DNA of 52,991 nt, counting the filler, from Bilabrum cf. latius (Eukaryota), in assembly GCA_965178125.1 (NCBI GenBank). It is 2 parts of 2 records of this genome, joined end to end, with 100 filler letters (N's around TTAATTAATTAA, not from the genome) between each part and the next. Parts side by side here need not be neighbours in the genome. Positions count along the whole stretch, not along the records: positions 26,569 to 52,991 come from CBCXTV010000034.1; 1 more part is not named here. The stretch is one strand, 5' to 3'. A model generated the notes under the pieces. It ran no database searches. It was not told the origin of the DNA and saw only the letters and a list, made by a program, of their open reading frames with translations. Below are positions 26,469 through 52,991 of this stretch, one piece after another (the first letter of the stretch is position 1; every line of letters begins with the position of its first letter). The translations under genes were made by a program, and so were the position numbers.

Positions 26469-26568
26469 NNNNNNNNNNNNNNNNNNNNNNNNNNNNNNNN
26501 NNNNNNNNNNNNTTAATTAATTAANNNNNNNNNNNNNNNNNNNNNNNNNNNNNNNNNNNNNNNNNNNN
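26469..26568. other. Artificial contig-joining spacer
   Basis: Exactly 44 N + TTAATTAATTAA (stop codons in all six frames) + 44 N = 100 nt. Confidence 0.97.
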
Positions 26569-32370: not shown

Positions 32371-32688
32371 CGGTCCACCGCGGTGCCGGTGCGATGCGAT
32401 GACGATTACGGCGAGCCTTGCTTGGCGGTCCGGAGTGGGGGTTATGCCTCCATACCGGCCCTTCCGGCGGGCGACGGAGCATCCGAGGGCGATTCGCTCC
32501 CTCCCGTGGCTCCTCTTGAGGTTGGTCCAGGAGATGAGGGTGACGTTCACGGAGAAGGTGAAGGAGTTCAGATGGATGAGGTGATCGACGAGGGTGCCCC
32601 AGATGGTGGAGAGGTTGACTGGATCGGGCCCGAGGCCGATGGTCGACGGGACCTGTATAGTGTCTATGGGAGGGCCAACACGGTTGAG

Positions 32689-33560
32689 CACATGCTGTTC
32701 CATTTCCCGAAGAGCCCGTATTGCCGGATCTGTCAGGAGGCGGCTTATGCAGCGGAAGCCGAATCGTCGGCGGAAGGACTTGCCTGACCAGTACAAGGTG
32801 TTCGGTGACATGATCACCATGGATCACATCGACGCCAACGATCTGCGCAAGAACGGATTGCACGGCGAGAAGGACATGCTTATTGTGTTCGACCTGGCGA
32901 CGGCATGGATTGCAGCCTATCCTGTCATGAACAAGACCGCTGGGTGTGTTGTGTCGTCCTTGATCAACTTCCTTGGGCAAGAGAAGGCCAAGGCGTTCTA
33001 CTCCGATAAGGCCCCCGAGTTGCTGGCGGGCGTCGAGCAGTTGCCTGGTCCTCCCGTTGTTCACCGCACAAGTATACCTGGAATTCCCCAGACAAACGGG
33101 ATTGCGGAGAGTCGAGTGAAGTCCGTGATCCGGGGGGTGAGGACCAACCTGTTGCAGGCTGGGTTGCCCCATGTCTGGTGGCCGCACGCTGCACGGTGTT
33201 ATGCCGTTCACAGCAACGTTGCGGGACTCCAGGAGAACACCCCTATGCAAGCGCGGCACAAGGAGGCATTTAAGGGAGAAGTGATCCCTTCGGTGCCTTG
33301 GTGTTCGCGATGCCGAGTGGGATCAACCGGAAGCGGAACTTCAAGTTCGAGGCCGCGGCCCAGCCGGCCGTGTTCTTGGGATACGTCGTTCAGGATGGCG
33401 GGAAATGGTTCGGGGAGTATGTGTGTGCGTTCGCGTCTGACTTTGTCGATGCGTCGTTCTATTCTCGGGCCCGCTGGTCAGAGTGCCGGGTTCCCGTTCA
33501 TACTGGTCGAGAATTGCGCTTCAACTCGGCAGTGCCCGTTCAGTTCCCTTGTCGGGCTGC
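32689..33560 (+). CDS. pol: Integrase: HHCC zinc motif, DDE core, copia-type C-terminal domain
   Basis: HMLFHFPKSPYCRIC at 32689-32733; MDHID (D at 32822); FYSDKAPEL (D at 33005); PQTNGIAES (E at 33107); then KFEAAAQPAVFLGY. Confidence 0.92.
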
Positions 33561-34429
33561 CTACGAAAGGGACAACGAGACGGTGCTTGGGGTGAAGAAG
33601 TGCCTGCAGCGCGAACGTGACGCGGATGAAGGATGCGATGACGTTGGCGACCCCGATGGCTTGGGTGTCGATGGCGAGCCGGTCCCGGAACGGGAGCCAC
33701 TCCTTCGTGATGATGAGCGCCCTCCTTTCGAGGAGGATGTCGCCGACCGCGTTTGGGGAGGCCTCTCATGCGGATGAGCCGGAGGTTGTCGAGCCCTACC
33801 CGACGGAGGTGCACAAGGAGCTGCAGGAGTTGAAAGACGAGGTCGATCGTTTGGAGCACATGCTCGTGCAAATTCCTTCTGGGAGAAGGGTTCAGGGCAG
33901 AGATGTGGACCAATTTGGAAAGGTGATCATGAAGACTACCCGTCGCCTTACATCGAATCCGACGATTGGATGAGGATGAACGAGTCCACCAAGAGGTCGC
34001 TTATCGACCAGCACCAGCAGGACCTCGACATGCTGATGGGTAAGAAGGAGAGGTTGGCCATGTTGACTCACACGATTGCTGAGTACGAGCGACGGCACAC
34101 CTCCCCCGAGTTGTGTGGTGACAGGGTTACCGCAGGCTTCTCGGGTACGGGGGGTGCATCGTCCTCTTCGAGTTCTTCTGCTGTGCCTCTCTGCAGCGTG
34201 TGTGCGAGGTGCGGGTGTCAGACACCCGCGGCCTCCGGCGTGGTCGAGAGTCGCTCGGGGGGCGGATGTGAGACGTCCGCAGTCCCCGGGGGGCCCGACG
34301 TGTCCTCGGAGGACATCGCCATGCCGGTGGTTATTCCTGAGTCCATTCCCCATCGTGAGAGGAATCCCATGGTCGTTACTTCGTACTACGCCTGTACTGC
34401 TCGTGATGTGAACCACAAAGAGCGGGCAT

Positions 34430-35790
34430 GGAACGTCGAGGCGCAGAAAGCCTCAAGAAGGAGTGGGGTCGCCTTCGATCATGTGGAAATGGCGAAGGGT
34501 GTTGGGACGAGACCCGTCTCGAGAGTTCGATGATGTTCAGGCGGAGTATCGCGGGAAGAAGGTCACCGCTCATTTTGGCCGTGTCTTTGACATATGCGTC
34601 GAGAAGAACTTTCACCTGGAGAAATTGCCCAATGGAGACCTCCCTCCCGGGCGGAAATACAAGGGTCGAGCCGTCTACCAAGGAAACAACGTGAAGGATC
34701 AGGAGGGCAACTGGGCCATCTTTCAGGAGCTGGCCTCATGTCCCTCTACGATGGAGGCGTCCAAGATCGTTGACTTCTATTCCTTGTTGGAAGGTCATGT
34801 GGGCGAGCAGGCCGATGCCGACATGGCCTATACTCAGGCTCGTTTCATTGGACCTCCGACGTGGGTCGAGGTGCTTCGCGAGCAGTGGCCCGACGCGTGG
34901 GATGGTGTTGGGCGCCATCAGCCCCGCTTTCGGCGGCCGGTTTGTCGGCTTCTTCGGGCGTTGTACGGGCATCCCGATTCGGGGGGGCTTGTGGGAGAGA
35001 CATTGCGATTCTCATCTGAGGTCGATCGGGTTTCGTGAGATCGACCCGTGGCGCAGCGTCTACTTCCATGACAAATTACAGGTGCTCCTCGTTGTCTATG
35101 TCGACGACTTTAAGATGGCAGGGAAGAAATCTGCTCTCGACAAGTGCTGGGGTGAGATTAGACGGGAGTTGCGCATGGAGGATCCAGAGCCCTTCGGTCT
35201 CTTCTTGGGTTGTGCCCATGAGGTCGGGGAGGTGAAGTTGGATTCGTCCTTGCCCCCGGTGCGCACGATGACGTACAATGTCGAGGCTTACCTCCGCAAG
35301 AGCATTGACAAGTACTTGGCGGTCCTCCCTCCAGGATCCTCATTGAAGAAGGCTGCCACTCCGTTCCTGACAGTCGCGGACCCCTTTGATGTGGCGCGCC
35401 CTTCGGGCGTCGGTCACGACCCTCGGATGTGTCCGTGGTGTCGTGGTGTCTTCGACTCGTCGGAGTTTTTGCCTCCCTCGGGGAAAGTCAAGGGTAGTGG
35501 GTGTAAGACACCCGCGAAGAAATCGGGTGACGGGTGTGGGACGCCCGTGACGCTTGAGAAGCCCGCTCCCCGGGGGGTCTTGGCTGAAAAGGCAGCCAGC
35601 GTGCTGATGCAGATTCTGTACGCGGCGCGTTACGCCCGTTTCGATCTGCTCTGCGCAGTGTCCAAGTTGGCTCAGCGGATAGCCACTTGGGACGAAGATT
35701 GCGATCGCCAGATCTACCGCCTCATGTGTTACATACACTCGACGTTGAGTTGGCGGCAGGTCGGGTACGTTGGCGATCCCCTCGGGGTGG
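34430..35790 (+). CDS. pol: Copia-type reverse transcriptase (frameshifted)
   Basis: KYKGRAVYQGNNVKD, QADADMAYTQA, LLRALYGHPDSGGLW, LLVVYVDDF (YVDD at 35097-35108), FLGC and LMQILYAARYARFDL. Confidence 0.95.
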
Positions 35791-35794
35791 TCGC

Positions 35795-36270
35795 GTTCGA
35801 GCTTTATGCCGACGCTGACTTCGCCGGGGAATGGTTCTAAGAAGTCTACTGCGGGGCTCCACGTGTCCATAGCGGGACCACGCACGTTTATTATCCGGTC
35901 AACGGTCAGAGCAAAAGGCAGGAGTGCGTGAGTCATTCAACTCCGGAAGCGGAGATGGTGGCAGCTGACCTCGCAATTCGTAAAGGAGGGCCTGTCCTGC
36001 TTGGACTTGTGGGATGTCCTGTGTCCAGGTCACAATCCACTCATCTTCTGGGAAGATAACGAAGCATGATTCGTGTCTGTCGATCTGGTCGCAATCCAAC
36101 GATGAAGACTCTCAACCGCACGCATGCGGTGTCTATTGCGGCTATGAAGGAGGTGTTCGACAGGGAGGATATCGAGTTGCGGTACGTGCCTTCAGCACGT
36201 CAGGCCGCCGATATCCACACGAAAGCCTTTGACAATGGCGATAAATGGAAGGATGTATGTGTCTTGATTG
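35795..36270 (+). CDS. pol: Copia-type RNase H (frameshifted)
   Basis: YADADFAG, KSTAG, SKRQECVSHSTPEAE, WEDNEA and QAADIHTKAF. Confidence 0.93.
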
Positions 36271-36569
36271 GGATCTACGATATGCAAACGTTCGACGTTC
36301 AGGAAACCATCACATTTTGGGCCACTCCGCCTCCGTCCAAGGCGACGTTGGCTCAAGAGAATGAAGTTGCGGCTCCTGCAGGCTGTGGGCGTGAGTCGCC
36401 CGCGCCGTGGGTGCCGTCGCCCGGGGGCGTTGGGAGTGGGCGTTGGACGCCCGCGGTCCCTCCGCTCCTCCCCGTTCGCGGCGCGACTGTGTCCTCGTCC
36501 CATCCGGTACCCGGACGGGGGGGTTCTCCCACCCCTCGCGGGGGTTCTCCTGTCCGGGGGGGTTCCGTA

Positions 36570-36605
<36 letters not shown>
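36570..36605 (+). repeat. 36-nt poly-G run within four GGGGGTTC units at the RNase H / DNMT frame junction
   Basis: Read directly from the sequence. The RNase H frame enters the run and the DNMT frame is open from the run onward (+1 offset). Confidence 0.9.
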
Positions 36606-36607
<2 letters not shown>

Positions 36608-36675
36608 CCGCGCGCTTTCAATCTTTCGGTCCGACTGCTGACGTGCCGCCGAGGCCAGAATCCACCGCTCGGCGG

Positions 36676-37395
36676 GTCATTATAGAGGTGTGCTGCAGTC
36701 CGACCTCGTCGATCGGCCGTTTCGCTCCTCAGGGATGCCATGTGGAGCGCATCACGGCGGCCGACGACTTTGCGTCGCGGGAAGGTAGGAACAAGGTATC
36801 GCGTGCGCTCAAAAGATATCGTGATGTACCCGTCTTGGTGTGGGTCTCTTTTCCGTGTACCGGTGGTTCGATGTGGCAGTCGCACAACTGGTGTACGGGT
36901 GATGAGTCCACGCGGAAGTTGATTTCCCAGCATTGGAAGTTGTTCCGTCGCTTGTGGAAGTCGTTCGTCGAGACGATCTTTCCGTCCGTTGCGGCCGGTG
37001 AAGTCGAGCTTGCTTGGGAGTGGCCACTCTCGTGTGTATATTGGGGTTGGTCACGTCATGGGTCGTGTTACGACGGTTCGAAGCAGGTCCCGGTCAAAGA
37101 AGTGTTGTCGCAGTTACGATTGACGTCATTGGTTGTTCATGGGTGCGAAGTTGGGTTGGTGGCCCAGTCGGGTCGACGTTCCGGGGGATCTGTTCGTAAG
37201 TTATGGAGAATTGATGTCTCGTGCCCGGACTTGCTGGGGACGCTAGGTAAGATGATAGTTCCCGGAGCATCTGACCACTTGGTTTGCGTGCACGGTGTTT
37301 CGCATGGTCACGTCAAGTGTGAAGGGTCAGTGACTAGGTCAACGGAAATGTACCCGAGCGTTTGGCGGGGGCTATTCATCGTGGGTGGGAGCGCA
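36676..37395 (+). CDS. Cytosine-5 DNA methyltransferase-like domain C-terminal to RNase H
   Basis: Motifs in C5-MTase order: I-like VIIEVCCSPTSSIG; IV VWVSFPCTGGS (PC at 36853-36858); VI-like AWEWP; VIII-like HGCEVG..RKLWRI; X-like TEMYPSV/LAGAI. Confidence 0.7.
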
Positions 37396-37976
37396 TATCG
37401 AGGAGGACGGACAGGAAGAGGGGGAAGATCACGCATGGGGCGAGTCAGCGCGCGTGTGTCGCGCGTCAGGTCTGTCCCGACCCGCAGCCGCCAGGCCCGG
37501 GCCCTTCGCCCCCCCCCCCCCCTGTCGGCCCCCAGCGCGTGTCGTCGTGGGCCTTGTTCCTCGACGGCAGCTTTTCGACTCTCTCTTTCCTCGGTCGCGC
37601 GCTCCGGCGCGTGGCCGCGCCGTTTGGCGTTTCTTGGCCGCCTTTCTGCGGTCCTTCTTCTTCGCGTCTCCCCGACGCATCAGGCCTTTCGGCCTCTAGG
37701 GGGCGGTTGAAGACCAGTGGGAGTTGGACTCCCGTAAGGTCGGATACCCCTCCTCTCTTCCCTCAGCTATCCGGGGAGCCGAAGACTCGTGGGTGTTGGA
37801 CACCCGCAGGGTCGGAGGCCGCCTTGACACGCTTCCTCTTCGCGGGAGGTCGAGCGCCTTGCGATCGGGTCGTATCCCCGTCCCGCTCGGCATTCCCTCT
37901 TGCGCGGGTTGGCTTGGTTGAAGGGGCGTCGCTTGGTGGGCGTTGGACGCCCGCAGAGCCGGTCCCTCCTTCAACC

Positions 37977-40900
37977 ATGCAGTATGCGGCGGAGCCCCTG
38001 CCGGAGCCGCCGCCTCCCGGCGCGCCGCTTTTCCCTGACGCCGAGCCCACTGATGTGCCACCAGTGATCCCCGACGAATGGCGCATTTTCGGCGGGTGGG
38101 AAGTGCCGGCGCCTTCGCTGCCATGCGCGTGGTTGGACCCGAGCAACTTCAGCATTCCGGTGTACCTTCCCAAGCACCCGGAGAAGTGGTTGGTCGACAA
38201 CTACTTTCAGATGCGGTGGCAGAACGCGTTGCAATTCTGCGCGCAGCAGAACGACCCGTTGAAGGACATCCGCTTCCCTTTGGGAAACGCCACGTTCTCG
38301 GGTCTGCGCAGTTGGTTCAAGAAGTTCGCGGCCCAGTTCGAGCCGAGGAATCAGGATGAGGCAACGCGTATATATCCGCCCGATATCCATCTCAAGTTTT
38401 CGTTGATGAGGGAGTAAATGAAGTCGCCGCACGATATGTTCTGGCTTATGTTGGCAACGTATACGAAACGGCACAGGGAGAACAACCATAACCCTCCACC
38501 GCTTGTTGGGATGTTGAATCGGCGCGGACAGACGCCGTCGATGCCGGTCATGACGGAGGCAGAACTCTCGGGGGATGTCATCTTGTACGCCCTGAGAGGA
38601 CCGTACGGGGAGTTTCAGTCCCGTCCAAGGCCTGCCGAATTAATCACGACGCCATCGGCATCGGACTTCAGGCGCAATGACTCGTTGTTGTGCGTGCACT
38701 CGAATGTTGCGGACGATGGCATCATGATCCAGTTCCAGTCTGCGACGGCGTTGGACGCCGCCACACAGGCTGGAGCCAGGAAGAACATCATCTTCGACGC
38801 CCGTCCGGTTGGCTTCGCCATTGCGTGGCAGGCAGCCCCTCCGCCCAACCAGGACTGTCTCGTCCATTGGCGGGTCATCGGTTTGGTCGCCGGTGGCCAG
38901 GCTGATCGATATGGTGTCGAAGAAGGATGGGAGATCAAGGCCATCATGGTGCAGGAGCTTTACGGGATGAACCACGTGGCGACGCTCACGGCGTTTCAGG
39001 CCGCCGTGAGGGCGTTGCCCGAGCGGCTTCCCACGCCGCCTCCCACGCCGGCCACGGCCGCCATCACGGATGCGCCGGCGGCGGATGTTACGATGGAGCC
39101 GGCCGAGCCTTTTGCGGAGCCTCCGACGGATGGCGGAAGTGGGACTTCCGCGCGTCCGGAAGAGCAGCATGGGCAACAGGAGGCGGGCGCCGCGGGTTCG
39201 CAAGACCCTCTGCCGGAGCGCGGGAGTCGGACTCCCGCACCTCCGGCCGATGGGGTACGCACCGCGGAGCCGTATGACCCTTGGGCGGAAGAACAAGAGG
39301 AGCCGCAACCGACGTCGAGTGCCGCGAGCTCAAAGGCCCATCCGCCGGAGCGTGGAAGTAGGACTTCCGCCCCTCCGGTTAGTGGGACCCGCACATCGGA
39401 GCCATACGACCCTTGGACTATGGAGGTGGACGATGAGGGTCCGCCAGGGGCGCAGTCGCAGAGCAGCGGGAGTCGGACTCCCGCACGCTCTGCGGCCACG
39501 CCCGGGCCATATGTTCCTCCAGGACCGAAAGCCCCTCCAGCGCCTCTTCGACGAGACGCCGTTCCACATCCTCCTCGAGGAGCAGAGCCAAACGTACCAG
39601 ATCTTCCTCCTAGTCGTAAGGCACCTCCACCGGGTTTTGGGGGCACGCCGCCGGGGCCGCCGCCCCAGCGGCAAGTCCCGGGGGCACCCCCGGGGCCGCC
39701 GCCCCGGAGGGCGCCTCCCCCCATGCCCACTGTTGCCGAGGAGGGTACCCCACACCCTGGGGCGAGCGGAAGTCGGACTTCCGCGACGCCTTCGGGGCAT
39801 GGGATGCCTTCCCAGGCAGCGTCCAGCTCAGCCGCCCCGGGCGCAGCGTCCAGTGGCAGCGGAAGTTACGCTTCCGCAGCCGCCGGCGTGTTCACGGGGT
39901 GGTTTCGCAGAGCCGCATCAGCTTTGAGAGGATCGGCATCTTCTTCGACGACGGGCCAGGCCGCGGCCGACGCGTCTGCCGCCCCCTCGGATCGCGGAAG
40001 TTACGCTTCCGCACGTCCGGTGGAGGCGCGTTCGCCACGGACGCCGTACCACGCGGTGATTCCGTGGGCGCAGATCCGCGGTGGCAAACGCCCCGTCGAT
40101 TTCAGTCGGATTTACCCCGCCGGGCCGACAGGACAAGGGCTTGAAGTTGCTGGCGCGAATGGCCTGGGGCCCCCGCCATACAAGCCGACGACGCTTTGGG
40201 AGCTCATGTATCGGCAGGGCTACAATCGGGAGTCGACCGGAGGTGAGTTGAAGGTGAACGTTCCCTTGCAGGTGGCTTTGTGGAAGACGGGAGGACGTGA
40301 GGCGTTCCACTACAGTGCGGAGATGTCGGGTACCCCCATCCCGGGCCAGAGGCGCTGTGAGGCGTGGACGGATTACGTCCGCGAGCTCCTCATTGCCGCT
40401 CTGCGCCTCGGCGATAACGCGGTACGGGACGCGTATGTGCGTCAGCCGTTGACGAACGTCTTGTCCGACATCAGGGCATTGTACAACGCGCTAGGACGGG
40501 AGGGGATGTTGAACGTCCCCCGGATCAAACCGTCGCAGTTGAAGGCATTGTGTACAGACCCGTCGCAGGATGGGCTGCCAATGCCCCCTAGCACATGGGA
40601 TTCTCTGGAGGAGATCCATTTGTTTGGGGACTCGACCACGATCCTCACGACGAACAAGAGAGGGCAGCAGAAGCTTGGCACGTTCTTCACGTCGTGGATT
40701 GAGCATTTTCGGGCCGATGTGAGGGCTGGTATAGTCGATCACACCGTTGGCGGTTCGGATATTGTGGGTGTCCGAAAGACCGTCACGGCCCAGCTAGAGC
40801 GCATGAGGACAATGGCGCAAGGATCGGACGAAGAGATGCGTCGGCGAGGCTTGGGCGCCCGTGTCGGCCCCCGCGTTGGATGTATTGTCATCTATAACGG

Positions 40901-43900
40901 GAACGCCGTAAAGGCGGAGCATCATAAGGAGAAGCACAAGGATTACGACGAGATGATGCTCTTGGCCCGGGAACTCGCGGCATTTGACCGGCATCTGTTG
41001 GTGATAAGCCATCACCATGATTTGTTCACTTTGGACGAGTCGTGGGCGTACCAGATGTCCGGAATGCATGTCATCGCAGATGCCGCGGGTTGCGCCACGA
41101 CAAGTGGATGGCCGATGATCTCGGGGATGTTCCCGTTCCGAAAGGGGTACTTGCATTCCAACGGGACGTTGCCGTCGCAGCATGTGACGCTCAACGAGTT
41201 CGCGGTCCTCTGCAAGATCCTCCAATTGAGCATTCCGGTCTCGATGGCGGTGGATCTGCTCCGGGTGAAGGGAGTGTCAATTCGTGACGACCCGGAGTAG
41301 AGTACGCCTTTGATGAACGGTACTCGGTGCCCGTGTCCCTGACGCATAGTGCGGTCGTCGGAGCGGGAAAAAGGACGACCGATTTCATGCCGAACGTCCC
41401 TTCGGTGGTAGGCTACAAGGCGGACGCGTACATGGCGGTCGACCCCCGGACAGGCAGGCCAGGGATGAGTAGGCGGGAATACCTGGACGCGATCAAGGTC
41501 CAAGCCTTGACCCACTACTATGAGTTGATGGTCACACGCCTGCGCGACGACGACCCGGCGATGCTCCATTTGCATCAGCACCGGAAGGACTCAGTGAGGG
41601 CGGACGTGCGGCGCCGTTTCGCTGAGCAGCGGACGTGGGTCGTCCGTGAGTTCATCGAAATGGCCCGCAGGTTCCGCGAAACGCAGAAGGAGGAGGAGCA
41701 CACGATCAAGTACAAGCGCCGTTTGTTGAGGCGGGCGGCGAAGTATTTCCTCCTGACCGGCGAGGACGGGTTCTTCACCTTCCTCGACCCGGGCATGGCG
41801 AACTTTATGGATGTGGAAGAGTCCGCCGGTCCCCCCGAGTTGGATGACGATGAATCGTTCGACGAAGACGACATTCATGCAACCATCGATGCATGGACAA
41901 CTGGGGGGCAATGGGACATTACCGTGGCACCCGTCGACAAGATCAGGGAAGTGGTCGGCGAAATGGCGAAGGAGGAGATCCAGAGGCGAGTGGCTGCGGG
42001 GTTGATGGACGCGAGGGCTCAGGACCAGCCGGGTGATGGGAGTAGGACTCCCGTGTTGCCGGTTGATCCCGAGACCTCGGCCGCCTCCCCCGCGGCGCCC
42101 AAGGATGAGCCGATGGAGGAGACGCGTGGAGGTGAGACCTCCGCCGCGCCGTCCTCCGTCGGTCCGCCCACGTCTGAGGAGGTGCCGCGTGGGAGTCAGA
42201 CTCCCACCGCGGTTCTCCCCGATGGCTCTGGTGCCTCCGCGACGGCTCCGCGCGGGAGTGAGACTCCCGCTCCGGTTGCTGGTGCGGAGGCGCCTGGCGC
42301 GCCTGGGCCCTCAGGGCCCGGGCCGACCCCCACATCAGGTCCTGAGCCGAGCGAGATGCCCGAGGCCGGCGCTCTGGGTGAGGAGGAAGCGGCGCGCGGG
42401 AGCGGGACTCTCGCTGCGTCTGCGGAGTCCAAACCCATGGATGTCGACGAGGAGGCGCCAAGTGGTGAGAACCTGCTCTCGAACTTCATGCCGGCGCCTC
42501 CGATGTGCGCGCCGCCGACGTGCATCGTTTCCAAGGACGTCGTGGACGTTGGGACGTTCGTGTGTGCGCCCTTGGGACCGTTCGGTGCTATTGACTACCA
42601 CGGTCACCCGATCCGGCCCGACGGGGCCACAGGGTCCGGGGCCAGCGTGTTGCTCATCTCCCTTGACATGAAGCACTTCGTGTTCGGCTACACGAGGAAG
42701 TCCAGGAGCACGCAAGGTCAGTATTGGACGACTTTTGGTGGCAACCGGGACAGACAGGATGACGGGCCCGTGGCTGTGGCTATGCGGGAATTCTCGGAAG
42801 AACATGGGAAAGAGTTTCCCTTGTGGGCCCATCCATGCGTTGGATACGTTTGGTCGAGGCACCATGTCACATTCGTAGTCATGTGTGATCCAGATTACGC
42901 TTGTTGGACATTCCATAGGAACAGTGAAGTGACAGAGGTCGTGCGCGTTTGCATCTTGGAAAATGTGCAATGGTCGAAATTGGTGCGTAGGGCATGCCAG
43001 AGTGCCGTGATTGCCGTGGCCTCGTTCCTCAGCGGCTCCGACCCCAAGCACAGGGAGAAGGTGCAGAAGGCGTTGGAGTTGGACCCGTGCAGCGGGATCA
43101 GTGAGTGCAGGCGCAAGTACACCAAATTCACCATGCCCTTGATCTGGATGCCGAGAGAGGCGTTGTACGGTGCTGAGCCGAAAGGGATTGGTAGTCGGCC
43201 GCTTGGGCGAGGGAGTAAGACTCCCCCAGTACCCATCGCCGGCACCGCCCTGGTGCTCATGCACGGACAGAGGGCGAGGGTGGAGGTGTGGGACGAGCCG
43301 GTGCCCAAGTTGCACGGCAGCAAGAACAGCGAGTCGCTCTTCAAGAGTATGGAGCTCGGGTTGCAGATCGCGTTGCGTCAGCCTTGGCACCCGGTGAACT
43401 CGGTGTTCGGCCCGCTCATGTCCTCGAAGGCGGCATACCCCGACGTCGTGGAGCACCGTCCATGGGTACTCATGGATACAGTGTCAGAGTATCACGCACC
43501 ATCACGCGTCGATGGCCCATTTCGACATGTACGGCCATTATAGGGAGCATGCAATGGGGTGGTCTACTGAGGTTGACGATCGCACGCGCGTGCACCCGGA
43601 CTATATCCGTGACCGGAAGAAGGGTATCATTGGCCCGAACGTCATCGACCCCACGCGCGATGAGGACGTCGACCGCATCAAGGGCCTCCCTGGAGCGTTG
43701 GGCATTGAGCGAGACGTCGAGCTCGAGGGGCGCGGGAGTCGGACTCCCGCTGCCTCTTCGGGGCCCGGTGCTGCCGCGAGTGGAAGTCAGTCGTCCACGG
43801 ACGCGCCGCGGCCTCCGACTCTCACTCAGTCCACGATTCCCCCCGTCGCTGAGGAGGTCCCTGCCGGGAGCGGGAGTCAGACTCCCGCAGGCCCGGTGGA

Positions 43901-46900
43901 GGCCTCCAGTGAGGGTGACGTTGTGGAGCCGGAAGAGGAGGCGGACTATGGTGACGCATCCTCGGTCGACCCCATGACGGCTGCCCTTAAGGTCTCATTC
44001 AGGGGTACGTCGCACTTGGCCGAGAAGCAGGACCTCCTATCGTTTCCCTACGCCACCGAGGTGGAGTACATATATGGTGGTTGTAGGACGGGTGCGGAGA
44101 TGGCGGCGATCACCATGGCGGCGTATCTGAACCTCAATCGTGGGGGTTACGCCCCTGCTTGGGGGGACGACGCGTTCCGAATTGGTGGTTACATGCCGGG
44201 CACGCACGGGCTTTCGACGGTGCATCCGTCGGTCCCGGACGCCGAGAAGGAGGTGGCCGCGTGGCGGAAGACGCTCGAGAAGTGCGACGGCGTGCTGATT
44301 TTCTGCTGGGCTACCATGAGTGACGAATTGCTTGAGTTGTGGTACATGGCCCAACATGATTATAAGCGGCATACTAAGGTGATAGATGTGTCGGCAGGTC
44401 GAAAGCACATGGTCGGTACCATCTGCGAGTGGTGTAATGAGTACCATGTCAAACGTTTGTGGATTACCGGCGAAACAGAGGACGAACTTGCCCATCCGAT
44501 GTGGCGGCCGCTGGCATATTATCTCATCGACGAGTTCAAGCCCACTGCGGAGAACTACACGATTGAGCCGGACCGAGATTACGACCAGGACCGGACAACC
44601 TTGCCGAAGGAGCTCAACGATGTGATCCACAGGGGCGATGTCTTCTACTCCCTCGACAGGGACGAGGAGGCTCCGACGACCACGATGGGTGACGGCGGAG
44701 GTCAGACCTCCGCAGACCCCATCGAGGTCGATGAGGCGATGCCGGACGCGGAGGGCGAGGCTGGCGAGAGTGGGACTCTCGCGAAGGCCACGTTCCTGCG
44801 TCCGGACACCGCCAAGCGCGCCGGACTAGAGCTTGAAGAGGATCGAGGCGACGATTTCACCCAAGTGATCGATTCACTCCCACCAGAGCATCGCGAGCGC
44901 ATTCATCGCCTTCTTCAAGTCGAGGCCGCGTTGGGCGCCGACGTCATCGTCAGTCTTCATCGGGCCGATAGCCTTTCGGCTGCGGACGTGGCTTATGCCA
45001 GCTGGACGTCCGTGATCGCCCTGATGGAGAAGGAAGACGTGGAAGCTGCCGGGGAGTCGAAGATCTACTTGGAGAACTTGAGGAGAAAGGTTGATTCGAT
45101 CATGGAGGCTCGGTCTGAGCCCAAGGCAGCGTCATCTCACGGAGCGAGGGCCGCGATGGAGCAGCAGGACGATGAGGAAGAAGATCCGTCGCTCAAGGTG
45201 CCCGCGCCCGAGGAGTTGGCAGATGCCCAGTTCGCCACGGCCGGGCTCTCGTCATTGGCGGCGCAGGCCCGTATCATTGAGGCGGGCAAGGAGGCAGCTT
45301 CGTCGGACGTTGCGCAGATTGACAAGCCGTCCGACAAGACCACGGTCACGATCGAAGATCTGTCGGGCTGCGTTCTCCCCGGGAATCAGGCGAGATTGGA
45401 CCAGTACTTGCAGCAGAATCCCGAGGGGATGCCGCAACTGGAGCATGAGCCGCTCGACAAGAAGGCTGAGGAGCACGTGATCGGGGACGAAGACGAAGCT
45501 CCCGGACCGCCGGGGCCACCCACGGGCACCTTTGCCTCGGAGGTTCCGACCTACGCGGCGGGTGGCGTTGGGCCGGCGGTGTCGACCATGGGTTCGGAAG
45601 ACCCGACTTTCCCGGGAGGTATGGTGGGGCCTTCCCTCTCCACTGTGGGATCGGAGGTACTCCTTCTCCCGGGGCAGTTGGTCGGGAGTCGCTCCGGCCC
45701 TTATGTGCCGGAGTCGTCCGGCACTGAGGAGCCCGGGGCCCAGGCGGAGGCCGTCGTCGGCGGGCCCGGGCCTTCCAGCGGAAGTTTGACTTCCGCAGGA
45801 TTGCTTGGGACCCGATATAGCGACTCGGTTCCGCCTGGCGCGACGGAGATGCTCGGAGAGGAGCGTGGTGGAGGTAGGACCTCCGCAGCGCACCTCGAAG
45901 AGGTCGCCGGTGAGTTGGAGCAGCAGGATGTCGCGATGGACGTGGATGAAGACCTCTCCCCGAAGGATGCGACGTCCAAGTCAATGGCTAAGGCTCTGAA
46001 CAAAATCGGCCCGCGTTTCAAGGGCACCGCCGAGGGTGCGGCTCGCCGTACGTTGTCGATGACTGACAGGTCTACGCGCGTCGATCCGGTATCAGCCTGG
46101 CACAAACTCACCTCTCAGCATGATCAGTCAGGAGAGGCTTTGCCCATCTTTCCGCCGGACGTCATAGCCAGGATTCTGCGCCAACCCCCCGCTGCGGGCG
46201 CGGCGTCTTCCTACTCCCAGGCGGTCCGCGGAGGTCAGACCTCCGCAGTGGCTGCCGCGGCCGTCCCCGTTGGTGGGAGTCGGACTCCCGCAGACGTGGA
46301 AGTCAAGGAGGAGGAGGATGACGAGCCTACGATTGATCAGCAGGAGTTTGCGCGGCGTATCGCTGTTGGGGCTGCCGCGCATCCGCAGATCGACTTGTCG
46401 AAGGAGATGTCCAGGAAGGAGAAGAGACAGGTGGCAAGGGCGAACGTTCTGGCGTTGAGGGCAAGAAGAGATGAAGAGATTGCAGTAGCCGCCCAGATCC
46501 TGCAAGAACAGCAGTCCCAGGCGTCGATCCAAGGGGATGCGAGGGTTGTCGTGTCGGGCGTTGGACGCCCGAGTGACGAGCAATACCTCCATATCCCGGA
46601 GATCAGCGCTCAGGGCAGCTGGGCGCAGAGCGTCGATGAGCTCAAGGAGTTGTTGGCGGACTGGTGCGGCGACGACGTGGGCGCGAGGGATCCGGCCTGC
46701 AAGGTCATTACTCCAGAGATGAGGAAGCTCCGAAACGGACAGCGCATTGTTCCGGATACCCTCAAGCTGAAGCCCCTCACGAGCCTGATGGTTGTGACGG
46801 GCAACCGTGGTGGCTCGTTCGTGACCGAGTATTTTGCCAACTATCGGCAAGAGGAGAGTGATCTGCGTAAGCACATCAACCAGGCGAGGCATCACGCGAG

Positions 46901-49900
46901 GAACCCGAACACGAGGTTCTCGAATGCTTACAACGACATCTCCAGGACGCTCGGGGCGTGGTTGCGCCACACAGGCCTCAACCATGTCAGTGGCCCTATC
47001 ACCCGCGATCAGCCCGGTTTGTCAATGGACACCGGGGGATGGGCGCCGTGGGGCACAGTGGTCAGGCGGCTGCACCAGCTGCTGGCGGATGGCTACAACA
47101 CAGCAGGATGCAAGAGAATGACCACGTCGGCCGTCCGTTTCGTGATCACGGAGAACGTCGTCTTGGCGACCATCCTCGCGTTGGATGTGAAGGGTCGGTT
47201 CCAATTGGCCTTCTGCAAGGATCCGCACAACGAAATCGAGATCCGGGGAGTCAGAGCGGTCCAGGGGCACAGTTTGATGTTCATCGATGAGGCGCGTTTG
47301 GCCTATTGCCCCGCTGGTGCCGCGGCGTTGAAGCAGACGATCAAGGAGCTCTGGCATGGCACCAAGCAGGACAGCCTGATGGGCATTTTGGCCAACGGAT
47401 TGATCCCCGGAGGAAGCGATGGTCGTATCAGAAGGAATTGCGTCCACATCTCACCGGTTCATCCCTGGATGGAAGGAGCTGAGCACACCAACCGCTCCAA
47501 CTCCGACTGCTTTGTTCGCATTGACGTGGACAAGTTGTACCAGCGCGTCCCAGTGCAGCACATCTTTCAGTCGGCGAATGGGACGGTGTTGGTTCGGGAC
47601 GCGGTTCCGGTGTCATGCTTCAAGGAGATCGTTTACCAGAACGGCCCCGGGGATTACCAGGTTGTGTGGAGCGCCTCCCGTGTCGGACAGGCGCCAAGTG
47701 TGGTCGTCCCGTCCGCCGGGGGCATGCGCGATCACTCCGGTGGTGCGGTTCAAGCCGCCCGTCGGTGGGCCAGCGGGAGTCGGACTCCCGCAGGGTCTGC
47801 TGCGGGCGGCGGTGGGAGTCAGACACCCATGCAGGAACCGCCTACCGTGGGGATCTCGCTCGACGTGGACTTGGACATTGCAGGTCGCGTTACCTTTCAT
47901 TGCCCTGTGTGTGAGAGTGTTTGCTTCGCAGGGGCGTGTTTTTGTTTCTCGTGTCGATCCAGGTTCTACTATGAGGACGAGGCCCACAAGCTCCGGCCGA
48001 TGGCGGCAGGCGTCGCGGTGCCGAGGGCCAGCCCGGAGACGCTGGCGCTGCTCAAGGAGGCCCGAGGAGAGCTAGGTCTTGGTCGAGGACGATCCGCGGG
48101 AAGCAACATGTGGCGTGACATCAAGCGTGGTAAAAGGTTAGGAGAGGAATGGCGTGGCCCAGGTTGGCAGAACCCGGAAGCGATAGAACGCATTCAAAAT
48201 GCAGCAAAGAAGGGCGGTGTGCCATTTACGTGGTCTGCGGGACGTTGCGACCCTTGGACTCCGACGAGTGAGCATTCGCGGCCGGACTCGCAGATCACCC
48301 TCACGCCTCGTGACTTCGTGTACGCGGTGTTGAGTATGATGGGCGGCCCATACACAGACGACCCGGATTCGCTGACCGGTGACGCCGCGGTGAAGCGCAC
48401 GAATGCCGTCACGTTCATCAACATCGTGAGTGTGTTGGGCACCGATGTGCTTTGGGAGATCATGCGCGACGAGACGATCTCGGCCGACGCAGTGTTTTTG
48501 GGTATTTACAATACCATTAGAGATATTCCCCAGATTGAGGAGAGTGTCATTCAAGTATTGGGGAATACCGTCGACCGCGAGGACTTTGCGTTTGCGCTGA
48601 ACTTCACACGCCGCGAGGTCGCCTAGTGGGGCGCCATTGTTGACCCTCAGAAGGGTCATCTTGCCCGCGACGCGCCGGTTGGGACCAGCGAGAGCAAGGC
48701 AGCGGCTCTGGCCAAGGGCCATGCCATCACCACTGCCGTTGGGAAGGCGAGACGGGCGACGCCGCCTCCCAAGCCGGCGGGCCCGACGACGGCCAAGGCC
48801 GCGAAGAGGAGTGGGAGTAGGACTTCCATGACGCCTCCCGCGCCGAAGGCCCGTCCGTCCGGCTCGCCGGGTCCAGGCGCTGGCCCAAAGGGGCAAGGCA
48901 AAGGTGGCGGGGGTAAGGCTCCCACCGCGCGCGACGCAACCTGAGAAGGGGCCGGGACGCGGAAGTCAGACTTCCGCAGCGCCCGCTAAGCCCATCTCTC
49001 AGCCCGCGCACAAGGGTAAGAGTACCGGTCGCGGAGGTAAGGCCTCCGTCGAGCCGGACCCTATCCCGCCATGGAGAGCCCAAAGCGGCAAGTCGATCGG
49101 TCGCGGGAGTCAGGCTCCCGTGAGGCCGGAAGCGTCCTTCACTTTGGCGAAAGGGGGCGGAAAGGCCTCGGAGCGTGGAGGTAGGACCTCCACACCTCCG
49201 ACGGCTCAGCCGCTCCCCCACTGCCAGCAAGTCTGGTGGAACGGGTAGCGGGAGCGGCACCCCTCCACCACCGCCCTGGGCCTCGAGCCGGGGCGGACCA
49301 CCGCAACGCGTGTGGGTCCCAAAGGGGTCCGCAGCGGCACCGGCCTCTGGCACGATGCCGCCTCCTCCGCCCACGACAACGATACCGTTTTCGAGTCCTC
49401 CGGCTGGCCAGACAGCATCTACGGGAACGCCCGCAAAGTCTAAGGCTTCAACACCTCCGCCGTTGAGAGGTTCGGTTGCTCGCGACCCGTTGATCACTCA
49501 GGACCCTCCGTCGCAATCGCACTTACCTGAGACCCGTGGAAGTCAGACTTCCACAAGGCCCAGGCAAGACGAGGAGACGGGTAGAGCTAGGGAGTCTAGG
49601 GCGCAGGAGCGCAGGTCTTCGCCGAGATCGCGATCGGGAACTGGAGCTACACGAAGCGAGGCGAGACCACCTTCGGCACCGACTGCGAGTTCACGGGGTG
49701 AAGAGCGGCGCCATGAGTCTTCAGGGCAATCTAGGCCCAGTGAGCATCGACCACGTTCACAACATGGTGAATCGTCGACGAGTCGCCAGCCTCGCCGTAC
49801 CCTCGCGACTCGGGCGATCGTCGTTCTTCCCGAGACGACGAACCCCGTCGAGGGCGACGCCGATCTCCTACTCCAAGGGAATCGGAGCGTCGCCGCCGCC

Positions 49901-50460
49901 GATCTCCCTCTCCACGGGAATCTGGCGGCACGCGCCGGCGCCGTGACGAGGACCCTCGGGAGCGTGGAAGTCGGACTTCCGCTGCTCCGCAGGGTGATCG
50001 TCCGGCGCCGAGCGCGGCGTCTTGGCTGGATCGAGGTCGCGACTCTCCCATGCGCGGTCCAGGCCGGGGTGCCAGCGCCCCTTCCGTGGCAAAGGCGCCA
50101 CCGCCGCCTCCGCCTCCAGAGCGAGCGGCATCCGCCTCTTCGCGTCACTCTCACGATTCGCCCTATCCAAGGGAACCTCGTCCGCGTCGAGACGCCGATT
50201 CTCCGGCCGACGACCGGACCCGATCTCGGAGGGCGTCGGGGGCAACGCAGGGCGGTGGGCGTCAGACGCACGCAGCTCCGCGGGACCCGCCTACGGCCTC
50301 AGAGCGACCCGAGGATCGCGGGAGTAGGACTTCCGCACGTCCTCAGGGGAGTTCGACTGTTGCCGGGGACCAGGGCCCTTCCCGCGCGCGCGATAGCACA
50401 CGCCATGGCGATCCTTCGTCGACGTCGCGTCGCTGGGGCGCTGAACGCCGCGGCGGCTGA
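37977..50460 (+). CDS. Giant cargo coding region (~4,100 codons) broken by two in-frame stops (38415, 48624) and several frameshifts
   Basis: Consecutive ORFs 37977-38417, 38418-41300, 41327-43543 and 43512-48626, then 48627-50460 in pieces. Protein-like sequence continues across every junction, and the G-S-x-T-P hairpin peptide stays in phase. The final TGA is at 50458-50460. Confidence 0.75.
38781..39025 (+). CDS. PDZ-like domain
   Basis: IIFDARPVGFAI (GLGF-loop equivalent) ... WRVIGLVAGGQADRYGVEEGWEIKAI, matching V..V..G..A...G...GD.I..I. Confidence 0.65.
40610..41230 (+). CDS. SGNH/GDSL hydrolase-like domain
   Basis: Block I IHLFGDS (GDS at 40626-40634), block II HTVGGSDI, block III IVIYNGNA, block V KGYLH (H at 41154). 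The usual Asp of DxxH is not evident. Confidence 0.5.
42635..43030 (+). CDS. Nudix hydrolase domain
   Basis: ASVLLIS..FVFG..WTTFGGNRDRQDDGPVAVAMREFSEEHG = G-x6-D-x7-RE-x2-EE-x-G at 42740-42808, against the canonical GX5EX7REUXEEXGU. NSEVTEV follows downstream. Confidence 0.85.
44058..44535 (+). CDS. SLOG-superfamily domain (putative MoCo-carrier / circularly permuted YpsA type)
   Basis: IYGGCRTGAEMAA..GGYAP..RKTLEKCDGVLIF..KVIDV..ICEW...VKRLWITGETE parallels the family pattern ISGGQTGADRAA..GGW.P..RT..NV.DSDGTLI..KP.L.ID..I..W...LNVAGPRES, recalled from memory. Confidence 0.72.
46935..47635 (+). CDS. kptA: Tpt1/KptA NAD+-dependent RNA 2'-phosphotransferase domain
   Basis: ISRTLGAWLRH, GLSMDTGGW, DVKGRFQL, VRAVQGHS, LWHGT..ILANGL.PG, RNCVHIS, VRID and QSANGTVLVRDAVPVSCF. 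The catalytic Arg-His-Arg-Arg tetrad is present. Confidence 0.93.
47901..47954 (+). CDS. Zinc ribbon after Tpt1
   Basis: CPVC-x10-CFSC. Confidence 0.65.
49560..50460 (+). CDS. Arg/Ser-rich disordered C-terminal tail of the cargo protein
   Basis: ERRSSPRSRS, RRGRRRSPTPRESERRRRRSPSPRES ... RRWGAERRGG-stop. Confidence 0.55.
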
Positions 50461-51003
50461 CGGCGATGTCATTATTCCGCTGTTGGCCGCCCAGGTGCAG
50501 CCGTTCGCCGTCGTCGGCGGGCACACCTTTTGCGTAGCGAGGAGGACTACCCAGACACGGAGTTTTACATCGATTGGTGATCGGTGGGATGGGGGGCTCT
50601 GCCTGGTGTCGTTGAGCCCAGGCATCCCCGTGCATTGTATAGGCTGAGCCGTATGCTCAGCGTTCTCCCGTGCTTGCGGTGTGCGTGTCCCCTCTTGTCT
50701 TGTGGTGCGCGGCGCAGTCGATCAGGTCTTTTTAGAGGCGAGGGCTTGCCGGCTTGGCGCTCGTCATGGCCGCCCGGGCAGATCGGTGGAAGCAGTCTTT
50801 CCCGCCGACTGTCCGGGCAGGCCGCCTCCCGAAGTGCCCTCGTCTCTCCCCGGGACACTACCCGGACCGGCATTAGTTCTGGCCGCCCGGCTAGCCATGT
50901 GGAGCCTTGATGCCCACCTCTGGCCCGGGCGTGCCGCCGTCTGGAGTAGCTGTTCCCGGGGGCTGCCCGAGACCCCGCAGCGGACTTGCTCGGGGCGGGC
51001 AGC

Positions 51004-51013
51004 GGGGAGGGGA
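51004..51013 (+). promoter_or_regulatory. Polypurine tract (plus-strand primer)
   Basis: GGGGAGGGGA immediately followed by TG, ~550 nt after the last stop codon. Confidence 0.6.
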
Positions 51014-51564
51014 TGACTCCATTCCCCCTCCCCGGGTCGGTCGCGCTCGCGCGTGTGTGGTGTATAGCGCTCGTCTTCGTCGCCTTCTATTTTGATGGAG
51101 GTCGGTAGTCGGGGCACCCTCGTCTTTTTGGCATGCTCTGTGCCTTGCCGTGAGAGTTGGACTCCCACCGCGGGCCAGACGTGCCAACGGGGGGTGTTTC
51201 TCGTTTGCCCCGATAACCGGACAGTATTCCTCCAAGTAGGTTGCACCTAGGACAGTAGCATGCATGCGCATAGCGGATCCGTAGTCCTTTTGGTCTTTTC
51301 GGAAAACAGTGTTCCGCGCATCGCACACTCGCTCGCGCTCGTCGCGTCGTGGGCCCTGTTCCCTGGCCCTTTGCCCGGCTACGGCCGGGCCAGTCCCGGG
51401 GCCCAGGGCACCACGTGCCCCAGGGCTGTGAGACTATCCAAGGGTGGTCCTGGAGGTTTGGGTCCAGGATCCCCTGCCCCGGACCAGAGTGGTCCGGGCT
51501 ACAGTGAGCCCCGGCCCCAGGGTGGCCGGGCACCTACCCATTCGCAGGGGTCTTCCCATTCGCA
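51014..51564 (+). mobile_element. Candidate LTR (551 bp, TG...CA) shared between the two tandem elements
   Basis: Begins TG directly after the PPT and ends CA directly before the PBS. No second LTR copy is in the window to confirm the boundaries. Confidence 0.6.
51278..51293 (+). promoter_or_regulatory. Dinoflagellate spliced-leader-like motif inside the LTR
   Basis: TCCGTAGTCCTTTTGG matches DinoSL DCCGTAGCCATTTTGG(CTCAAG) at 14 of 16 positions, ungapped. Confidence 0.45.
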
Positions 51565-51578
51565 GGTTATCAGCCGTA
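51565..51578 (+). promoter_or_regulatory. Primer-binding site complementary to the anticodon arm of tRNA-Ile (half-tRNA priming)
   Basis: GGTTATCAGCCGTA; its reverse complement UACGG-CU-GAU-AA-CC has anticodon stem-loop architecture. The geometry matches the copia half-tRNAiMet PBS GGTTATGGGCCCAG. It abuts CA and lies 18 nt before the gag ATG. Confidence 0.7.
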
Positions 51579-51596
51579 TAGCCTGTTCCCAGGGCG

Positions 51597-52991
51597 ATGG
51601 AGCCCCGTGGCTCCACTCCGCCCATTCGAGACGGTGAAGAGGCGTCCCTTGACGACCTCACGCTGTCATCCCTCACGCCCCCATCTCCGTTACCGCTCCG
51701 CGAGGGAGCGGAACCCCAGGGCGGTGGGGGCCAAGCCTCTGCAGTCCTTGGGCCCATGGACGGTGTCGTCGTCCCTAGCTGTGGGGGCCAAGCCCCCGCC
51801 GAGCTAGGGCAGGGACGACAGGCCGAGCGCCGCGGGGCGCAGCACTTCCTCATCCATTCGGAGGGTGAGGAAGTCTCCGCAGGAGCCGAGCCGGACCAGG
51901 AGCGGCCCCCTTCCTTGGGTCGTTCCCGATCTCCGTCCGCGATGCCTACGGCGTCCGACCGTTCGTCGCCTGTCAGTCGTCGTTCTCGCGCTGTCGGTCG
52001 TTCATCTCGTTGCAGGTTTCCGGCGGAAAGTAGGGACGCGCGCTCGGGCGGTAGCCGTCCCGACCCCCCCCCCCCCCTCCCCCCCGCCGCCGCCATGGGC
52101 GGCCGTCGTTGCCGTCGACTCCGCGTTCAACGAGACCAAGTGCTACTCGCTCGCCGAGTCAGGCTCCCTTGGATGTTTCTGTGCCGGAACAGCCGCTGAG
52201 CGGATGGGGTTGTGGGAGCCAAGCTTCCGCTTGCCCCCCCGCTCGGTCATCTGCTCTGGACGGAGGCATCCACACAGGTGATGGCGATGGCCAAGTGGTG
52301 ATAGCGACTGATAGTCATGCCCAAAACTTCCTCGAAAAATCCGATGATGATGTAGCGACGGGGTGCGACCTCGAGACGCAGCTCGAGGACATCATGCGGG
52401 AGACGTTCGACGCCGCGAGCGCCGAGCTCGCCGCTCACGGCCCGACTCCGCGTGCGCACAGTGCATCGCGACGCACCTCCCCGAAGGGCATGCCGGTCCG
52501 TGGGTGCCAAGCATCCGCTAGACTGGCTGCCCCGAGGGGAGATGGGCCGCCCGCGCGCAACGTTGCCGAATCGTCGTCGTCATCATTACCGCCGGGCGCA
52601 TTCCCTCATCGGTTATCTCGTCCGGAGAGTTGCGCGGATCCGGCGACTCCGCCGGCCGCGCCGCCGCCGGCGCATGGGCATCTCGAGTACGACGGTAACG
52701 ACAAATCGGTATTTTCCGGAGTAATGAATGTGGATTTCCCGTTCCAGGCTGGCTCAAACCCCGGTGTTGGCCCTGGTGGGGGTCATACCCCCGCAGATGG
52801 TGCCGATACCGGGGGTCACATGGGCCTGCCCCATGGTCCTTTTGACAGTGTGGCTGAGGCGAGCGGGCGCCAAGTGCCCGCATCGCCAAATGGGCACGAC
52901 TCAGCTTCTGATTCTACCATGGGGAACGGGAAAGACTCCGAAGGCAGGAAGCGCGTGAAGATCCATGGGGAGGGGCTGGGGGAGCCGATGC
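51597..52991 (+). mobile_element. gag: 5' gag region of a second, diverged copy of the element (runs off the window)
   Basis: ATG at 51597. 51630-52991 is collinear with 26575-27970, sharing SLDDLTLSSLTPP, RGAQHFLIHSEGEEVSAG.EPDQERPP, CCATGGGGAACGGGA and GGAAGCGCGTGAAGAT. Confidence 0.9.

Follow-up and report, generated by a model that had tools for sequence, protein, structure and literature searches.

The Drosophila element copia and the yeast element Ty5 both prime reverse transcription from the 5' half of the initiator tRNA-Met, and we know of no Tpt1 encoded by either of them despite their half-tRNA primers. Cleavage by RNase P has reportedly been proposed for the copia primer, and RNase P cleavage leaves a 3'-OH. 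Retrotransposons in general are usually assumed to depend on their host for every step of RNA processing. Here, we analyzed a window of 52,991 nucleotides from Bilabrum cf. latius (assembly GCA_965178125.1), in which a Tpt1/KptA RNA 2'-phosphotransferase domain is carried by a giant copia-like retrotransposon. This element shares with copia and Ty5 the features of the Ty1/copia superfamily, namely the integrase-before-reverse transcriptase (RT) order and a YVDD-type RT. In contrast, copia and Ty5 are ~5 kb long and are not known to contain a Tpt1, Nudix or SLOG domain, whereas the internal region of the element described here spans ~24 kb and includes ~14 kb of open reading frames (ORFs) located after pol. 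By internal coding length, the element ranks among the largest copia-like elements.

Papers are cited below by their PMC numbers. Viral KptA systems are similar to the present locus in that a mobile element encodes its own KptA, pairs it with a Nudix domain and places it inside a large polyprotein. In particular, KptA is found in jumbo-phage RNA repair, in a KptA-Nudix fusion of Bodo saltans virus, and within two polyproteins of RNA viruses (picorna-like viruses and nidoviruses), as described by Iyer et al. 2022 (PMC9503650). These systems belong to viruses of bacteria, a kinetoplastid and animals, whereas in the element described here KptA is accompanied by RT and RNase H, and neither a ligase nor a 2H enzyme was found. 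The words 'retrotransposon' and 'retroelement' do not occur in the available text of that paper, supplementary lists aside. The cellular Tpt1 that acts in the tRNA splicing of fungi and plants belongs to the same Pfam family and shares the two-lobe fold, which consists of a winged-helix RNA lobe and an ADP-ribosyltransferase NAD+ lobe, as well as the Arg-His-Arg-Arg tetrad. However, the element Tpt1 is 24-31% identical to canonical members, has extra segments inserted into its RNA lobe, and forms part of a 1704-aa protein together with SLOG-like, zinc-ribbon and further domains. Ogre, Burro, the rotifer Terminons and dUTPase-bearing elements are also similar, with an internal region of > 20 kb, extra enzymatic ORFs past pol and very high copy numbers, but Ogre and Burro are gypsy-like and the Terminons Penelope-like, whereas the present element is copia-like (PMC6431247). 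In the available text of this review of giant eukaryotic transposons, 'phosphotransferase', 'Nudix' and 'ADP-ribos-' do not occur. We found no report of a Tpt1 in a retrotransposon in the literature searched, where the co-mentions, among the matches listed, were incidental lines of Pfam tables.

The window consists of two contigs, which are separated at positions 26469-26568 by an artificial linker (N44-TTAATTAATTAA-N44) with stops in six frames, so that features are not readable across it. The Tpt1 locus is on the second contig (26569-52991), where the following features were found.

43512..48626, + strand: 1704-codon ORF from an ATG, with SLOG-like, Tpt1, zinc-ribbon and C-terminal domains
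46935..47597, + strand: Tpt1/KptA RNA 2'-phosphotransferase domain, aa 1142-1362, PF01885
47895-47966, + strand: Cys-rich zinc ribbon, identified in the alignment
~48213-48623, + strand: conserved C-terminal domain, identified in the alignment, with a predicted local distance difference test score (pLDDT) of ~45-55 in AlphaFold2 (AF2)
48627..50460, + strand: low-complexity Ser/Arg/Pro-rich tail, collinear with the C-termini of the relatives P0001 and P0002

The PF01885 match showed an E value of 1.5e-12 and a score of 48.3 bits against a cut-off of 26, and it covered profile positions 5-176 of 177. A phmmer search of the PDB identified yeast Tpt1 (7yw4, E 4.5e-5), and the matches to PHROG 5470 and NCBIfam PRK00819 were weak, far below the cut-offs of these families. 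The AF2 model of the Tpt1 region, which was built from an 11-row alignment, had a mean pLDDT of 60, with values of 78-92 in the NAD+ lobe and a less confident RNA lobe. When this model was submitted to Foldseek, all 21 matches at E <= 0.001 were Tpt1/KptA structures, and the best of them showed an E value of 6.3e-9 and a target template modelling (TM) score of ~0.7. The Arg-His-Arg-Arg tetrad, as defined in PMC6333775, was found at R1152, H1153, R1248 and R1308, which aligned to the canonical LRH, IRAxQGHS and RNxVH motifs; the QGHS and HGT motifs were likewise kept. In canonical enzymes, this tetrad binds the 2'- and 3'-phosphates of the RNA junction (PMC6333775). The domain is divergent yet, judged from these residues, looks catalytically competent. 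A sequence-only reading of this DNA had described an intact Tpt1 in the element, and the profile match, the uniform Foldseek matches and the retained tetrad bear this description out.

A HMMER search of 1.84 billion representatives revealed 71 proteins at E <= 0.001, and 32 of the 40 that were scanned carried PF01885 and no other family. The nearest relatives were not ordinary cellular Tpt1s; they belonged to a divergent clade in which the zinc ribbon and the C-terminal domain are also present. We also observed the order of Tpt1, zinc ribbon and C-terminal domain in the distant relatives P0015 and P0039. The 1704-codon ORF closes at an in-frame TAG at which two relatives continue.

With a probability of about 0.55, we favor the reading that the Tpt1 is a conserved element-borne module, linked to NAD+ and ADP-ribose, that processes RNA 2'-phosphates or RNA ends. 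The Tpt1 would be a long-kept accessory enzyme, made with pol or just after it, and it would use NAD+ to strip RNA 2'-phosphates at repair junctions of the type left by host tRNA ligase, or at RNA ends. Nudix and SLOG partners encoded upstream would handle the ADP-ribose products. The whole would then constitute an element-borne RNA clean-up module, similar to those suggested for phages, for a giant virus and for the polyproteins of some RNA viruses, and its candidate substrates would be the genomic template, host tRNAs or the tRNA used as primer. If a Tpt1 is indeed conserved and linked to pol in the company of Nudix-like and SLOG-like domains, a retroelement would have its own NAD+/ADP-ribose-dependent RNA clean-up tools, which have so far been considered in phages, in one giant virus and in a few viruses with RNA genomes. 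What Tpt1 enzymes act on outside tRNA splicing is still debated (PMC6573784), and the element would supply a natural context for such a substrate.

The strongest link between the Tpt1 and pol was found in P0116, a protein of 1663 aa from an unrelated data set. P0116 begins within a YVDD RT, contains RT and RNase H at aa 1-410, and is 34% identical to the RT ORF of the window over 274 residues (E 1e-35). Further along the same uninterrupted ORF, PF01885 covers aa 910-1121, and a zinc ribbon comes after it. Because RT-RNase H and Tpt1 are found in one ORF in P0116, the Tpt1 is probably a conserved pol accessory of the element lineage. Together with P0116, the tiling of same-strand ORFs, the in-frame hairpins common to these ORFs and the high repeat level indicate that the Tpt1 is part of the element. 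In particular, + strand ORFs tile the contig from gag to the tail, and ~14 kb of them follow RNase H (~36300) as a coding excess past pol; this extra coding includes a Nudix-like box, the cpYpsA-SLOG-like domain, the Tpt1 and the zinc ribbon. When 8,992 bases of this stretch were compared with the contigs of four sequencing runs, contig pieces at least 90% alike numbered 29,996 in X1, 17,707 in X2, 942 in X5 and 4,079 in X6. The element is a Ty1/copia-like retrotransposon of ~25 kb that is very abundant and partly decayed, and positions 46935-51578 comprise the 3' end region of one copy and the spacer, probably a long terminal repeat (LTR), that separates it from the next copy. The tetrad was retained in copies at 67-99% identity and in relatives at ~30% identity.

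The copia-like character of the element, which the sequence-only reading had assumed, is supported by the following features of pol.

32689..33289, + strand: integrase, with an HHCC finger (32689-32736) and a DDE-like core (32738-33289) within ORF 32585-33592
34412..36300, + strand: copia-type RT and RNase H, identified from motifs; the RT changes frame internally and the RNase H is interrupted by stops
35091-35123, + strand: RT motif VVYVDDFKMAG, in the translation of ORF 34695-35837
35805-35831, + strand: RNase H motif YADADFAGE, in translation
36183-36230, + strand: RNase H C-terminal motif, in translation

A Pfam scan of 155 ORFs (8 + 147) at E <= 0.01 revealed nothing except one spurious weak match, and the copia parts were recovered by eye, by a loose Pfam scan and via relatives. 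The integrase-like core was 35% identical to aa 475-658 of P0086, a protein of 1890 aa (E 1e-31), in which RVT_2 is located downstream of this region at aa 1021-1201; the Pfam family rve was not detected in the integrase-like region. The domain order in the window, integrase (core 32738-33289) followed by RT-RNase H (RT 34412-35837), is that of P0086, and an integrase upstream of RT corresponds to the Ty1/copia order. The Pfam RVT_2 match of the window RT ORF (E 0.026, 14.6 bits) was below the cut-off of 31.6. We found 37 longer relatives of this ORF at 28-69% identity, 19 of which contain PF07727, and the relative P0083 spans 35049-36434 in a single frame (tblastn). The integrase-like core upstream of a YVDD RT with RNase H, together with the PF07727-bearing relatives, confirms the copia-like setting. 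We also observed a dUTPase (PF00692) in three of the 37 relatives (P0091, P0106 and P0110), which indicates that the accessory load varies within the copia-like clade.

This variation bears on the possibility that the Tpt1 is a passenger, that is, a piece of a host gene, acquired downstream of pol, that brings no benefit and decays with the element. LTR retrotransposons are described as capturing ORFs downstream of pol (PMC6431247), and besides the dUTPase in 3/37 relatives, a Tpt1 was annotated in only one of the 37. Additionally, the Tpt1-bearing copy is decayed: it contains a frame change within RT, stops within RNase H, in-frame stops at 38415-38417 and 48624-48626, and three frame changes in the tail relative to P0001 and P0002 (tblastn frames 3, 1, 2, 1 for both). 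However, this copy still has the 1704-codon ORF and the tetrad although its tail and RT are already broken, and the motifs are kept in copies at 67-88% identity. The small number of matches (71 among 1.84 billion representatives at E 0.001), the nearest of which belong to the divergent clade and not to cellular Tpt1s, likewise argues against a passenger, as does the Tpt1 in the pol of P0116, whose RT is only 34% identical. We therefore regard a mere passenger as very unlikely. The history of the domain may comprise one ancient acquisition or two captures, which the Tpt1-domain tree does not separate.

The region between pol and the Tpt1 contains further blocks that bear on the reading of the Tpt1 as part of an NAD+/ADP-ribose-linked module.

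36571..37707, + strand: domain following RNase H, without an assigned family, motifs EVCCSP and FPCTGGS
38418..41297, + strand: 960-codon ORF, divided from the upstream ORF by one in-frame stop (38415-38417)
41288..43540, + strand: 751-codon ORF with a Nudix-like box (...REFSEEHG...) at 42737-42811
44070..44480, + strand: cpYpsA-type SLOG-like domain, PF12694, E 3.6e-5, 24 bits

The Nudix-like box of the 751-codon ORF keeps the REFSEEHG core and differs from the GX5EX7REUXEEXGU consensus by one extra spacer residue and by having Asp where the consensus has its first Glu. NUDIX clusters made up 25 of the 30 feature matches of this ORF in the ESM Atlas (score 0.95), and the closest Nudix look-alikes were giant-virus proteins. 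Pfam showed no Nudix match in the ORF, and a PDB sequence search revealed nothing. For the SLOG-like domain, the top three Atlas matches were cpYpsA clusters with scores of 0.86-0.87 and 170-174 shared features. The Nudix-like ORF (41288-43540), the SLOG-like domain (44070-44480) and the Tpt1 are thus located in one accessory region, and all of them belong to NAD+/ADP-ribose biochemistry. With PHROGs, NCBIfam and PADLOC, the accessory ORFs gave only weak Tpt1 matches, and none with PADLOC.

The domain at 36571-37707 matched no family in four profile libraries (Pfam, PHROGs, NCBIfam and PADLOC). In P0083, RT-RNase H is fused with this domain in one protein (tblastn). The 960-codon ORF likewise showed no family in the four libraries and no PDB sequence match. 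Its C-terminal part contains LFGDSTT (40620-40640) and YNGNAV (40890-40910), which appear SGNH/GDSL-like by eye, and P0116 showed no significant similarity to the 960-aa product.

Several observations weigh against the favored reading. The Nudix assignment was made from a motif read by eye and from language-model look-alikes, with Pfam negative, and the single-sequence AF2 model was unusable (pLDDT 41). The SLOG match of 24 bits is just under the Pfam cut-off of 26.2. Searches of the element with the four libraries detected neither an RNA ligase nor a 2H/cyclic phosphodiesterase, and likewise no polynucleotide kinase and no macro domain, which means that a complete repair pathway is either not encoded or too divergent for detection. 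In the Tpt1-domain tree, only two of the 20 inner branches were well supported, and P0116 was placed on a very long branch. Finally, given its in-frame stops and frame changes, the product of the Tpt1-bearing copy itself may never be made.

The same neighbors can be read differently, with the Tpt1 domain acting mainly as an ADP-ribosyltransferase or as a tool of NAD+/ADP-ribose conflict. It would then cap the 5'-phosphate ends of element RNA or complementary DNA (cDNA) or of host nucleic acids, or it would, with SLOG and Nudix, intercept or destroy NAD+-derived immune signals. Tpt1, TRPT1 and KptA are described as ADP-ribosylating 5'-phosphorylated nucleic acids (PMC12678800, PMC10415124, PMC6582358, PMC6573784), and SLOG, Nudix and ADP-ribosyltransferase (ART) domains have been grouped in one NAD+-ADP-ribose conflict network (PMC9503650). 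SLOG domains are also described as sensors of cyclic ADP-ribose isomers in Thoeris ThsA, and the giant-virus origin of the nearest Nudix look-alikes is consistent with a role in conflict. However, the full tetrad that binds junction phosphates is kept, which fits canonical chemistry, the PADLOC models matched none of the accessory ORFs, and the element showed neither a TIR partner nor a macro or sirtuin one. We consider a mainly ADP-ribosylating or conflict-related function unlikely.

The sequence-only reading had offered a narrower explanation, in which a 5' tRNA half primes RT and the pol-linked Tpt1 turns the 2'- or 3'-phosphate end left by a nuclease into a 3'-OH. Such healing of the primer would be a special case of the RNA-end-processing module that we favor. 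An intact Tpt1 linked to pol would be co-packaged with RT and the primer, and half-tRNA priming is documented within the superfamily, for copia (PMC10275265). Removal of terminal 2'/3'-phosphates with NAD+ is good in the Tpt1 of Clostridium, Aeropyrum and (2' only) Chaetomium, is absent in that of Runella, human and E. coli, and is 34,000-fold weaker in yeast Tpt1 than removal of the internal 2'-phosphate (PMC6573784). The premise that a subset of Tpt1 enzymes removes terminal phosphates holds insofar as the activity exists; it is patchy and restricted to a minority of enzymes, being absent or feeble in most of those tested (PMC6573784). Additionally, metal-independent RNases leave 2',3'-cyclic phosphates, which a 2H-type enzyme opens before KptA acts (PMC9503650). 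No Tpt1 is reported to open a 2',3'-cyclic phosphate, so a prior 2H enzyme would be needed, and none was found in the element. The Nudix-like and SLOG-like neighbors, in turn, point to a wider NAD+/ADP-ribose module. It also weighs against the healing of a primer that copia and Ty5 are not known to have a Tpt1 of their own, and that the RNase P-type cut reportedly proposed for copia would leave a 3'-OH.

The candidate primer binding site (PBS) that had suggested such a primer is found downstream of the Tpt1-bearing copy, next to the following features.

50585-50598, no strand assigned: purine run, possible polypurine tract, identified in the sequence
50650..51564, no strand assigned: non-coding spacer between copies, candidate single (shared) LTR, without a hairpin-marked ORF frame
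51565..51578, + strand: candidate half-tRNA PBS GGTTATCAGCCGTA, directly after 'CA'
51597..52991, + strand: start of a second, diverged copy, with the ATG of its gag ORF at 51597

The candidate PBS is a string of 14-19 nt beside the candidate LTR end, and the complement of GGTTATCAGCCGTA resembles a 2-bp stem with a 7-nt anticodon loop. Its position directly after CA and this anticodon-loop-like complement speak for a primer made from a tRNA half. However, the string was picked after reading the sequence, and the same pattern (2 bp stem, Y-T-NNN-R-N loop) was found at 88 sites in the 26,423 nt of the contig minus strand, which corresponds to 0.13 expected by chance per 40 nt. An Rfam search of 101 nt around the site at E <= 10 revealed no tRNA-like match, and ARAGORN found 0 tRNA genes in the window. 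Across the whole window, no Rfam family reached its gathering score, and no ribozyme was found. The spacer at 50650-51564 contains no internal direct repeat of > 22 nt and has no second copy in the window, and without such a partner its LTR end is unproven. The summed word depth over 50900-51799 was 2-3x higher in runs X1, X2 and X6, but not in X5, which is a weak hint of an LTR. With the LTR end unproven, the TGG-starting alternatives at 51493, 51523 and 51598, all within 75 nt, appear equally admissible as PBS candidates. Moreover, GGTTATCAGCCGTA is located upstream of the second copy and not of the Tpt1-bearing copy, whose own 5' LTR and PBS are outside the contig, its 5' end being cut at the contig start (26569). 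The string after CA and its anticodon-loop-like complement are as described, but the half-tRNA PBS itself is not confirmed. We consider the healing of a half-tRNA primer quite unlikely.

The loop suggested by the complement of GGTTATCAGCCGTA is one base off the CAU (Met) anticodon loop, the primer type of copia and Ty5. To our knowledge, GAU is not the usual anticodon of eukaryotic cytosolic tRNA-Ile, which weighs against the tRNA-Ile half named in the sequence-only reading. If anything, an initiator-Met half would be the better guess. If the family is truly primed by tRNA halves, the Tpt1 would provide a handle on how such primers gain their 3'-OH.

The start of the second copy is ~70-76% identical to 26581-27746. 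We considered whether 26581-27746 and 51647-52814 could be the LTR pair of one element and rejected this assignment, because with LTRs at ~70-76% identity the intervening 1704-codon ORF would no longer be open, and because the repeat is read in a coding frame consistent with the hairpins.

A bolder version of the module can be formulated from the pol linkage together with these hairpins, which are distributed along the element as follows.

26729..52881, + strand: 19-nt hairpin palindromes dispersed over 47 sites (consensus GYGGRNGTNNGACNYCCRC), their stems showing compensatory changes

It is possible, if tentative, that this giant copia-like lineage has an NAD+-dependent RNA 2'-phosphotransferase in its pol polyprotein and uses it in the particle to ready the packaged RNA for reverse transcription, either by freeing the 3' end of the cleaved tRNA primer or by erasing 2'-phosphate marks on the 25-kb template. 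Such an in-particle enzyme may join with the Nudix and SLOG domains and with the dozens of in-frame RNA hairpins, which could serve as dispersed packaging signals. If this were true, it would mark the first known case of a retroelement with an RNA-repair enzyme. The literature searched for RT arrest at RNA 2'-phosphates contained nothing useful, and PMC9095486 contains no such statement, so for that step of the template-cleaning idea we infer rather than cite.

The hairpins themselves were found in gag-pol and accessory ORFs alike, nearly all of them in frame as G-[SGC]-x-T-[PS]-[AT], and none was found on the other contig. When sites were picked by their flanks alone, 68 were found on the element contig compared with six on the other; at least four of the five inner pairs were Watson-Crick in 37 of the 68, compared with 11.9 expected when partners were permuted. 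Stem position 5 was G-C 25 times and A-T 26 times, and orthologous hairpins of the two copies differed by paired changes. Among positions that were not Watson-Crick, G-T (51) exceeded A-C (20), which fits folding of the + strand RNA, although a similar but weaker bias is seen on the other contig. From these patterns, the hairpins could be dispersed signals for RNA packaging or processing. We also observed that joints in the run-contig comparison link hairpin-like repeats.

The 5' part of the Tpt1-bearing copy, which overlaps the repeat shared with the second copy, showed the following features.

26581..31126, + strand: gag-like 5' part of copy 1, with coiled-coil ORFs read by eye, from which its identity is deduced
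30539-31123, + strand: CCCH-type zinc finger in the gag-like region, found by eye, with a weak Pfam zf-CCCH_12 match (E 0.014)

The gag-like region thus contains a CCCH-type finger instead of the usual CCHC knuckle.

Searches with the divergent Tpt1 clade were extended to environmental data. In the JGI metagenomes, an alignment of this clade identified five loci (172-187 bits), each an ordinary Tpt1 gene that has no RT in its neighborhood, and a scan of IMG/VR identified one locus with 22% identity. Two unrelated metagenome contigs showed unusual architectures. In L002 (1806-7847), a canonical Tpt1 forms the end of an open ORF of 2014 codons that also contains a CCCH zinc finger, and in L001 (88-1431), a canonical Tpt1 is fused to an RNase T-type exonuclease.

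On the other contig of the window (1-26468), we found no Pfam match and no hairpin motif. It carries a separate set of repeats, whose units are spaced at ~20.7 kb and at 3.1-3.7 kb, and it contains two 474-codon ORFs on the minus strand, at 516-1937 and 15532-16953.

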